Positions 6,217 through 6,942 of a stretch of 64,000 nt of DNA are shown in pieces. Below the pieces are notes generated by a model. That model was not told the DNA's origin and did no database searches. It saw only the letters and a program-made list of their open reading frames with translations. Each line of letters starts with the position of its first letter. Position 1 is the first letter of the stretch. A program made the position numbers and the translations under genes. The stretch lies in assembly GCA_964187785.1 (NCBI GenBank), contig OZ076409.1, forward strand, positions 2,916,001-2,980,000. The letters are read 5' to 3'. Source of the stretch: Amphiscolops sp. MND2022. Its lineage: Eukaryota.

Positions 6217-6942
6217 GCAAGACACGGTAACGATCTCAGTATCAAACTCTGCCGTGTATAAATAACTCCCTGCTCTCATTTTTCATCGATCTAAAACAGA
6301 TCACTTTTCTCTAGCAGGAAGGCACGGGTTTTGGACGTGCGTATTCAACTCTATCCTTGCAAGAAGACACGGTAACGATCTTAGTATCAAACTCTGCCGT
6401 GTATAAATAACTCCGTTGCATAGTTCAACGAAGATACGGTGTATAGACGTATATTACAATTTTTGTCACAACGTTTGACAAAGACACGGTAACGATCGAA
6501 CGACGGTTCGCATCAAACTCTGCCGTGTATAAATAACTCCCTACCCTTTTTCTTTTCATTGATCTAAACTGGCCACTTAGATCACTTTTTCTTGGGTAGG
6601 AAGACACGGGTTTTGGACGTGTAGCCTTGCCTCTTCTTAATCTTTTTTAACTCTCTCTTTCTCAGGCAAGAAGAGACGGTAACGATCTTAGTATCAATCT
6701 CTGCCGTCTATAAATAACTCCCTGCTCCTATTTTCTTTTCTTCTTGGTCTCAAAGAGATCCTTTTTCTTTAAGCAGGAAGACACGGTTTTTAGACGTGTG
6801 CTACATTACCTTGCAAGAGGAGACGGTAAAGACCTAAGTGTCAAACTCTGCCGTCTATAAATAACTCCTCGCTACTATTCGTTTCTGTCTGTTTTTAACA
6901 GAACACTTTTCTTAAGCGGGAAGACACGGTATTTAGACGTGT
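6217..6942 (+). ncRNA. Tandem array of five copies of a covarying multi-stem RNA motif (unknown class)
   Basis: Units at about 6217-6340, 6361-6452, 6481-6622, 6671-6799 and 6815-6942. Architecture is stem A, the invariant linker AUAAAUAACUCC, stem B, AAG, stem C. Compensatory changes occur in every stem, and the G-U pairs work only on the + strand. Confidence 0.7.

Follow-up and report, generated by a model that had tools for sequence, protein, structure and literature searches.

Five tandem copies of a module built from inverted repeats lie just before the envelope gene (env) of an endogenous retrovirus in Amphiscolops sp. MND2022, at 6217-6942 of the 64,000-nucleotide stretch analysed here (GenBank assembly GCA_964187785.1, contig OZ076409.1, 2,916,001-2,980,000; hereafter the window, whose positions and plus strand are used unless stated). 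The question raised by this locus is whether such an array is maintained as RNA structure, and what it might do for the element that carries it. An earlier reading made from the letters alone (the sequence-only reading) had proposed an unrecognised structured RNA with a functional fold. In our analysis the fold is well supported in outline, and the stems and linkers are very probably under selection as sense-strand RNA structure.

A direct-repeat finder places the unit starts at 6219, 6364, 6481/6490, 6671 and 6818, and CCGTSTATAAATAACTCC is found five times in the window against 0.02 expected, a count reached in 0 of 100 shuffles; the array of five units proposed earlier is thus borne out. 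Units are 117-190 nt long and run in the order AAG, hairpin A, ATAAATAACTCC, hairpin B, AAG, hairpin C and linker. In hairpin A an internal loop (TAAC / AA[A/T]CTCTG) separates the 6-bp outer stem from a 3-bp inner one. Hairpin B is closed by 5-7 bp, has loops of between 7 and about 47 nt and usually contains an additional inner helix, and hairpin C has 5 bp enclosing a 9-nt G/U-rich loop. Between hairpins A and B, ATAAATAACTCC is unpaired and invariant across the five units, CCGT[G/C]TATAAATAACTCC is present in every unit, and the inter-unit linker is either a small hairpin in itself or the palindrome CTTGCAAG. The stems A, B and C listed in the sequence-only reading are all in place, as are its linker hairpins TTGTCA/TGACAA and CTTGCCT/AGGCAAG (Table 1). 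Minimum free energy folds of single units return exactly hairpins A, B and C.

The helices are kept by pairing and not by sequence. Units 1-3 have ACACGG/CCGTGT as the outer stem of hairpin A, with C-G as its second pair; units 4-5 have AGACGG/CCGTCT, with G-C as the second pair. The inner stem is GAT/ATC, except in unit 5, where GAC/GTC replaces the third pair, U-A, with C-G; unit 3 has an additional CGAAC/GTTCG helix. Because the 5' arm of hairpin C is identical to that of hairpin A and is unchanged in units 4-5, the 5' arm of A pairs with the 3' arm of A and has no alternative partner. Four different helices close region B, namely CCTGCT/AGCAGG (units 1 and 4), CGTTG/CAACG (unit 2), CCTACCC/GGGTAGG (unit 3) and CTCGCT/AGCGGG (unit 5), and stem C exists as GCACG/CGTGC, ATACG/CGTAT or ACACG/CGTGT. 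Between subfamilies of the element, the apical helix of unit 3 is CGAAC/GTTCG or CAAAC/GTTTG, and the upper stem of its hairpin B is CTAA/TTAG or CTGA/TCAG. Symmetric compensatory changes of this kind are what a nucleic-acid helix would predict, unlike a dimeric DNA-binding protein.

When the five window units were taken together with five units of sister families, hairpin A was paired in 94.4% of cells, against 19-66% with a slid partner, and two of its pairs were changed on both sides. Hairpin C was 100% paired with two of five pairs changed on both sides, a result equalled in 21 of 500 shuffles, while the terminal closing helix of region B was matched by 40, 425, 30, 71 and 127 of 20000 shuffles for units 1 to 5. 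The compensatory changes announced by the sequence-only reading are therefore real, but its word "extensive" overstated two pairs in A and two in C.

Copies elsewhere in the genome allow the constraint to be read column by column. The array motif has 778 occurrences in the 1.07-Gb genome against 4 for a control, which implies about 150 or more arrays. An alignment of 42 sequences (the window and 41 loci; locus L061 was unmatched) included six exact duplicates and thus 36 distinct copies, a few of them partial. Among these, substitutions are scarce in the stems and the linker and concentrated in the loops: the variable columns number 4 of 60 in stem A, 6 of 60 in the linker, 0 of 15 in AAG, 1 of 50 in stem C and 9 of 55 in stem B, then 8 of 45 in the C loop, 32 of 129 in the A loops, 74 of 178 in the B loops and 94 of 279 in spacers and flanks. 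Pair 7 of the unit-3 stem B is private to the window copy (1 of 36), and the array holds 3-5 units in different copies of the window's family (family 1). This pattern fits selection on stems and linkers, in keeping with the earlier description of invariant unpaired linkers between helices maintained by base pairing. Pair-altering variants common to several copies are all G.U on the plus strand (in 3, 5 and 29 copies) and those of the A.C type are singletons, so that sense RNA is favoured.

Comparable arrays, differing in unit number, occupy the pol-env interval of two sister families of this genome. In family 2, whose env is 61% identical to that of the window, at least eight tandem units of 50-60 nt each consist of hairpin A alone (with the same internal loops), GGTAAATAAC or GGTAAAAAAC where the window family has TATAAATAAC, and TTTTCAG; all 11 distinct units have GGTAAAT or GGTAAAA in place of the TATA motif of the window. 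This array precedes an accessory open reading frame (ORF) and not env, the last copy standing about 25-33 nt before the ORF start. Family 3 has an env about 50% identical to that of the window; in the three loci read, 2-3 units of 86-180 nt immediately precede env, and the hairpin-C motif of the family gives 204 genomic matches (control 0) whose spacing shows 1-5 units. A family-3 unit is composed of a 6-bp hairpin with a 6-nt loop, ATAAAATTTT, 6 nt complementary to the loop, CC/hairpin B and hairpin C, and the TATA-type motif, TATAAAAT or TATAAATT, stands at the equal relative place in 8 of 8 units.

Over those eight family-3 units from three loci, 94.8% of cells are paired. Nine pairs show a change on both sides, where shuffles give 2.9+-1.2 (0 of 500 as high) and sliding gives 1-3. 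The crossing helix is 97.9% paired, has three of six pairs changed on both sides and spans the TATAAAA stretch; as a covarying helix encloses it, that sequence is constrained as RNA. The crossing helix would form either alongside the invariant first hairpin, as a pseudoknot, or in its place. By eye, families 1 and 3 share the order hairpin, TATAAA[A/T], AAC(C)TCC, hairpin, hairpin. It is the symmetric compensatory helices, the family-3 helix crossing the TATA stretch and the G.U bias that together argue for selection as sense RNA.

The same data bear on a neutral tandem repeat, in which the inverted repeats would be functionless by-products of duplication. Tandem repeats are common in the untranslated parts of long terminal repeat (LTR) retroelements, further examples in the present one being those at 4670-4899 and in the LTR, and the folding energies are unexceptional. 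An expectation that the array would be better conserved than its flanks was also given up, for sensitive blastn gives 81-88% for both in a diverged subfamily, so that as a block the array behaves as a neutral repeat might. Substitutions within the array are, however, strongly uneven, hairpin B is closed by four different helices, and compensatory changes occur in the window family and in two sister families; we disfavour neutrality and hold it to be highly improbable.

Database searches place the array outside catalogued RNA families. Rfam 15 returned no match at the gathering threshold over the whole window, and at E<=10 the interval 6100-7300 gave a sole match, PK-BYV on the minus strand (14.5 bits, E 5.8), which is attributed to chance; nothing was found inside the sister-family arrays of loci L068 and L070-L072. 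The RNA remains unrecognised in that sense, as the sequence-only reading had said, and no earlier description of such an array was found in the open-access literature searched. The hairpin-A pattern had 0 matches in metagenome contigs and the linker pattern 0 matches in viral contigs. Two further candidates were tried and rejected. The units are unlike the sequence before the 3' LTR and after the 5' LTR, which removes a polypurine tract or primer-binding site. An element for nuclear expression (ENE) of the triple-helix type was considered for the pyrimidine-rich internal loops on both sides of hairpin B in units 1, 3, 4 and 5, but these candidate loops are the least conserved part and are lacking in unit 2 and family 3, and some 6 kb separate the array from the element's 3' end, which speaks against ENE-type placement.

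Pistol ribozymes and plant-virus exoribonuclease-resistant RNAs (xrRNAs) have a topology in which a hairpin loop pairs with a downstream segment as a pseudoknot, and their surrounding helices are arranged otherwise than in family 3. The likeness to such H-type pseudoknots is that the 6-nt loop of family 3 pairs past an A/U-rich connector of 10 nt, with covariation. An RNA-processing element of a new class, either a self-cleaving ribozyme, an xrRNA leaving 5'-truncated subgenomic RNAs or a source of small RNAs, would account for this topology, and also for unit-length repeats in tandem whose unpaired nucleotides stay invariant between covarying helices. However, no ribozyme family of Rfam (hammerhead, hepatitis delta virus-like, twister, pistol, hatchet) and no xrRNA family matched at E<=10, and no pseudoknot partner was found in the window family, which makes this explanation very improbable. 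Pistol and other small self-cleaving ribozymes were rejected for the window units, given the lack of an Rfam match and of any conserved loop-to-linker pairing. A related idea, a long shot, is a portable viral RNA device placed in variable copy number before any 3' gene that requires an RNA of its own and making subgenomic RNAs by self-cleavage or by blocking a 5'-3' exonuclease. Its layout would be a hairpin, an A-rich connector, a variable hairpin and a small hairpin with a U-rich loop, with a true pseudoknot in the sister family, and it would need neither splicing nor an internal promoter.

The carrier of the array is a gypsy-type endogenous retrovirus of about 18.6 kb with LTRs of 2033 bp that are 99.7% identical, at window positions -5694..-3662 (locus L061) and 10880-12912. 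The env product matches Pfam PF24664 (Monjiviricetes fusion glycoprotein, 3.5e-37), of the class III fusion type, and its nearest Atlas clusters are rhabdovirus G/herpesvirus gB-like. Of 64 env copies scored in the genome, 54 are without an internal stop and all are 96-100% identical in protein; the family is a young, high-copy and very active endogenous retrovirus. With the env ATG at 7225, a spacer of 283 nt is left, which agrees with the earlier placement of the array just upstream of env. In the three families the distance from the array to the next ORF start is 25-283 nt.

That position, shared by three families, is one of the grounds for the main rival, an internal promoter array. Each unit would be a core promoter with TATAAATA as its TATA box, producing a subgenomic env mRNA independent of the LTR, and the flanking inverted repeats would be factor sites or 5' leader, in parallel with the Tor element of Oikopleura and foamy virus. 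TATAAATA is perfect in 5 of 5 units, the last of these motifs lying 369 nt upstream of the env ATG, and in nearly all copies; the family-3 motif has its matching place in 8 of 8 units; the promoter-like region of the LTR has a similar TATAAAAG; and TCA is found about 23-31 nt past the start of the TATA stretch in units 1-3. Internal env promoters are documented for Tor (PMC4402516), and like the Tor Penv and the foamy-virus internal promoter the array is intergenic and upstream of env in a gypsy-type element, with a perfect TATA-like motif. PMC4402516 contains no mention of TATA, tandem or stem-loop, and has "repeat" only twice, in other contexts.

The array differs from those promoters in its covarying helices and in the family-3 helix over the TATA stretch, and compensatory changes in four helices are likewise constraints of an RNA type. 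A start 30 nt past the TATA stretch would fall in hairpin B, and hairpin A, the linker and half of B would be missing from that RNA, while the presumed initiator region, 25-32 nt downstream, lies in the B loop, the most variable part of the array, where TCATCG of unit 1 is TTTTTG in one subfamily. Family 2 has GGTAAATAAC or GGTAAAAAAC and no TATA box, its last copy being about 33 nt from the ATG. The CRE (cAMP response element)/CCAAT-type motifs of the LTR were not found in the array, and five TATA boxes spaced 117-190 nt apart would be unusual. The sequence-only reading had named a promoter as its alternative; the sister families weaken that alternative without removing it, and we regard it as unlikely, though still the foremost competitor.

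Proximity to an ORF would equally suit a translation element, with the array as the structured 5' leader of an env or accessory mRNA, acting additively by recruitment in the manner of an internal ribosome entry site (IRES) or by control of scanning. The array is directly before an ORF in all three families, some 700 nt of stable hairpins would impede ordinary scanning, and the variable number of units (1-5 in family 3, 3-5 in family 1) fits an additive element. However, presence of the array in the env mRNA is a premise only, the 283 nt between array and env ATG hold conserved blocks of their own, and no IRES family of Rfam was matched. We give this explanation little credence.

Still less credence is given to splicing control, in which the units would be alternative 3' and decoy 5' splice sites masked or presented by the helices. 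A pyrimidine tract and CAG precede hairpin A immediately in 8 of 8 family-3 units, in most family-2 units and in window units 1 and 4, GGTAA opens the hairpin A loop in all units of families 1 and 2, and purine-rich AAGAAGA stretches follow the acceptor-like sites. Against this, GT is missing from the donor-like site in three of eight family-3 units, whose pairing is nonetheless preserved by covariation. Introns of 34-52 nt, as this explanation implies, do not suit a host with myosin exons 0.4-4 kb apart, and the acceptor-like sequences of window units 2, 3 and 5 are weak. A reading of the units as mini-introns (GTAACG...TTTTCAG, 46 nt) is doubtful in view of the same myosin exon spacing and the family-3 units without GT.

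The constitutive transport element (CTE) of Mason-Pfizer monkey virus (MPMV), the Rev response element (RRE) of human immunodeficiency virus (HIV) and the direct repeats of Rous sarcoma virus (RSV) serve the nuclear exit and use of intron-containing RNA. What is new in the present locus is an uncatalogued structured-RNA repeat, and its known kind is that of retroviral cis-acting RNA elements. Tentatively, and short of even odds, we propose that the array is a multivalent post-transcriptional platform, most likely for CTE/RRE-like export or expression. The repeated modules would bind a host or element-encoded protein and act on full-length or partly spliced viral RNA, and the most likely effect would be that intron-containing RNA leaves the nucleus and gets used. 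Repetition of the module would raise avidity, as for CTE-type elements, and the accessory ORFs of the element that lack a Pfam family could supply an adaptor protein.

This proposal draws on the structured, repeated modules with invariant unpaired nucleotides, on the setting in a complex retrovirus with accessory ORFs that no Pfam family covers, and on the need of gypsy-type elements to export intron-containing genomic RNA, as PMC10309623 indicates for Cer1 of C. elegans, a gypsy-type element that requires a dedicated protein, CERV, for genomic-RNA export. It draws also on the copy-number dependence of CTE-type elements together with an AAGACA in each unit, which is the weak point of the argument; PMC4174252 gives AAGACA as the NXF1-binding motif of CTEs and describes 4 or 8 tandem copies as stronger than one. 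In the array AAGACA is found six times, at 6219, 6364, 6481, 6601, 6778 and 6921, with at least one in every unit.

Likeness to known systems is partial in each case. With CTEs (those of MPMV/simian retrovirus, NXF1 intron 10 and the gammaretroviral gamma-CTE) the array shares the nature of a structured cis-acting retroelement RNA outside the coding core, the presence of six AAGACA motifs and a build of repeated sub-elements, for which rising activity with copy number is a CTE feature in PMC4174252. It differs in that the ACA of its AAGACA is predicted to be paired, whereas CTEs show the motif in an internal loop of an extended helix, in lying upstream and not downstream of env, in an invertebrate-type host genome, in having no sequence or covariance-model match, and in that sister-family arrays do not show the motif. 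With the Rev/RRE type (HIV RRE, HERV-K RcRE, mouse mammary tumour virus RmRE) and the CERV of Cer1 it has in common a complex retroelement with accessory ORFs and, for the former, a multi-hairpin RNA in the pol-env region that could bind a multimerising adaptor; export of unspliced RNA is a known gypsy-type need (PMC10309623). An RRE is one large branched structure and not a tandem array, the accessory ORFs here match no Pfam family, leaving the adaptor only a candidate, and PMC10309623 contains 0 mentions of "response element" or "cis-acting" and describes no cis element.

The direct repeats dr1 that flank src in RSV are needed for cytoplasmic accumulation and packaging of unspliced RNA, and Rfam includes a dr1 family. 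Like the array, they are repeats lying in the 3' half of a retrovirus, each about 100 nt long, but RSV has two dispersed copies where a tandem array is found here, and no Rfam match was obtained at E<=10.

Several observations weigh against an RNA fold with an export role. Independent compensatory events are few in the window's family, and no new double change in the main stems was seen among its 36 distinct copies. Single units give weak folding-energy z-scores (-0.5 to -1.6), and the whole region folds alike on both strands (z -3.5 on plus, -2.7 on minus); the sequence-only reading had fixed the strand from G-U pairs, and while the shared G.U variants do favour sense, the similar folding of the minus strand does not. 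Its broader claim of a functional RNA fold accordingly stands as to helices, linkers and pattern of conservation, less so as to independent covariation and thermodynamic support. A covariance model of family 3 found no match in the window array at E<=10 with filters off, and a per-unit scan for helices of at least 5 bp gave AACTCC no partner in a consistent register in the window units, pairing with the C loop being possible only in units 1 and 3. The likeness of families 1 and 3 is therefore architectural and not demonstrated homology, and carrying the family-3 pseudoknot over to the window array was rejected. As regards export, the ACA of every AAGACA starts stem A or stem C in the predicted folds, no AAGACA was seen in the family-2 and family-3 arrays that were read, and an export element does not need a position before an ORF, unlike a promoter or translation element. 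An env-profile scan of metagenomes gave five loci, of which L075 alone has enough upstream sequence for the array region to be read; this env relative (42% identity) has no array upstream of env.

Envelope-carrying retroviruses of the gypsy type, those with a gB-type env among them, are widespread in invertebrates according to PMC13524379, a survey which contains no mention of such repeats or of splic-, tandem repeat, TATA, subgenomic or internal promoter. There is almost no knowledge of how such invertebrate retroviruses express their 3' genes and export unspliced RNA; for Cer1, PMC10309623 describes an export protein and no RNA target. With some 150 copies or more, the young family studied here supplies a concrete, sharply defined and repeated candidate cis element, with natural variants on hand in three families and from 1 to at least 8 units. 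Should the array be an internal promoter instead, the Tor observation would be extended to a second lineage. Either way it provides a handle on gene expression in an unusually large retroelement with a TRAF/MATH-domain gene.

Table 1. Positions of the array, its units and neighbouring features of the same element in the window
Feature	Position	Strand	Details	Basis
pol, 3' part	3-3473	+	reverse transcriptase, RNase H, integrase	Pfam
Accessory ORF	5735-6133	+	132 aa, no Pfam family; ends 84 nt before array	ORF list, Pfam
Whole array	6217-6942	+	five tandem A-ATAAATAACTCC-B-AAG-C modules	repeat finder, motif count
Unit 1	6219-6363	+	stem A 6222-6227/6252-6257; linker 6258-6269; stem B 6269-6274/6313-6318 with inner GATCT/AGATC; AAG 6319-6321; stem C 6322-6326/6336-6340; then linker with CTTGCAAG palindrome	
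Unit 2 (compact)	6364-6480	+	stem A 6367-6372/6397-6402; linker 6403-6414; stem B 6414-6418/6426-6430, 7-nt loop; stem C 6434-6438/6448-6452; linker hairpin TTTTGTCA/TGACAAAG 6461-6483	
Unit 3	6481-6670	+	stem A 6484-6489/6523-6528, apical CGAAC/GTTCG 6497-6510; linker 6529-6540; stem B 6540-6546/6594-6600, inner helix TGATCTAA/TTAGATCA; stem C 6604-6608/6618-6622; linker hairpin CTTGCCT/AGGCAAG 6626-6670	
Unit 4	6671-6817	+	stem A 6674-6679/6704-6709 (AGACGG/CCGTCT); linker 6710-6721; stem B 6721-6726/6772-6777, inner GGTCTC/GAGATC (one G.U); stem C 6781-6785/6795-6799	
Unit 5	6818-6942	+	stem A 6821-6826/6851-6856, inner GAC/GTC; linker 6857-6868; stem B 6868-6873/6915-6920 (one U.G, kept in 29 of 36 copies); stem C 6924-6928/6938-6942	
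Array-env spacer	6943-7224	+	conserved blocks: hairpin CCTTT..AAAGG 6954-6968, TTTTCAG 7030-7036, GGTTAGCAAGCCTACC 7155-7170	
env	7225-9360	+	in-frame TAG at 7252-7254 (codon 10) in window copy	Pfam PF24664
3' LTR	10880-12912	+	2033 bp; CRE/CCAAT/TATAAAAG promoter-like region near 11080-11270	LTR comparison

Within the spacer, a hairpin CCTTT-CACGA-AAAGG directly 3' of the last unit is kept among copies. Just 5' of env, GGTTAGCAAGC[C]TACC is conserved in families 1 and 2 and nearly invariant in family-1 copies; in family 2 (locus L068, minus strand) it has 2-3 occurrences. It resembles a donor site, but the introns so implied would be very short.

The stop in the window env falls in the signal-peptide region, and most other scored copies are open there. 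Env genes of the P0003, P0064 and P0081 types were not found in this genome. Public assemblies contain env relatives of 65-70% identity. A metagenomic env relative (L074) has in its 345 nt of upstream sequence an unrelated palindrome, long and perfect, at 230-300 (GAGAAGGAGTAACGTTAACATG...CATGTTAACGTTACTCCTTCTC), which may be an assembly fold-back.

Two ORFs stand between env and the 3' LTR. The first, of 153 aa (9386-9847), matched no Pfam family, as was the case for the accessory ORF upstream of the array (5735-6133) and others of the element. The second (9850-10821, plus strand; 323 aa) has a coiled-coil-like N-terminal half and a TRAF/meprin MATH domain (PF21355 3e-22, PF22486 4e-20), and looks like a captured host TRAF-like gene. 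The 3' LTR is trailed by a near-complete tandem LTR copy (11130-13093 vs 13091-15054, 99.9%), and each LTR copy has an 88-nt tandem repeat (4.3 copies, 97% identical; 11520-11894 and 13481-13854) downstream of the CRE/CCAAT/TATAAAAG region.

A second tandem repeat of the element, at 4670-4899 (plus strand; 125 nt x 1.8, 91% identical), precedes the accessory ORFs. Its copies each carry a CTCCG..CGGAG hairpin and the motifs AAACTCT, AATAAC and CTTGCAAG, which are shared with the array, and it may be a second kind of pre-ORF module. Short antisense ORFs at 3563-3742 and 3858-4064 (minus strand) follow pol and precede the accessory region, and in the corresponding part of family 3 (L070, about 130-865, minus strand) a long acidic/Ser-rich antisense ORF was noted by eye; these may represent an antisense gene of such elements.

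Elsewhere in the window, a gypsy-type set of gag/protease, RNase H and integrase at 42787-47951 (minus strand) belongs to another retroelement, and a further one at 54388-63831 (plus strand) has a single gag-pol ORF of 3147 aa and a G+C content of 52%, against 36-40% elsewhere.

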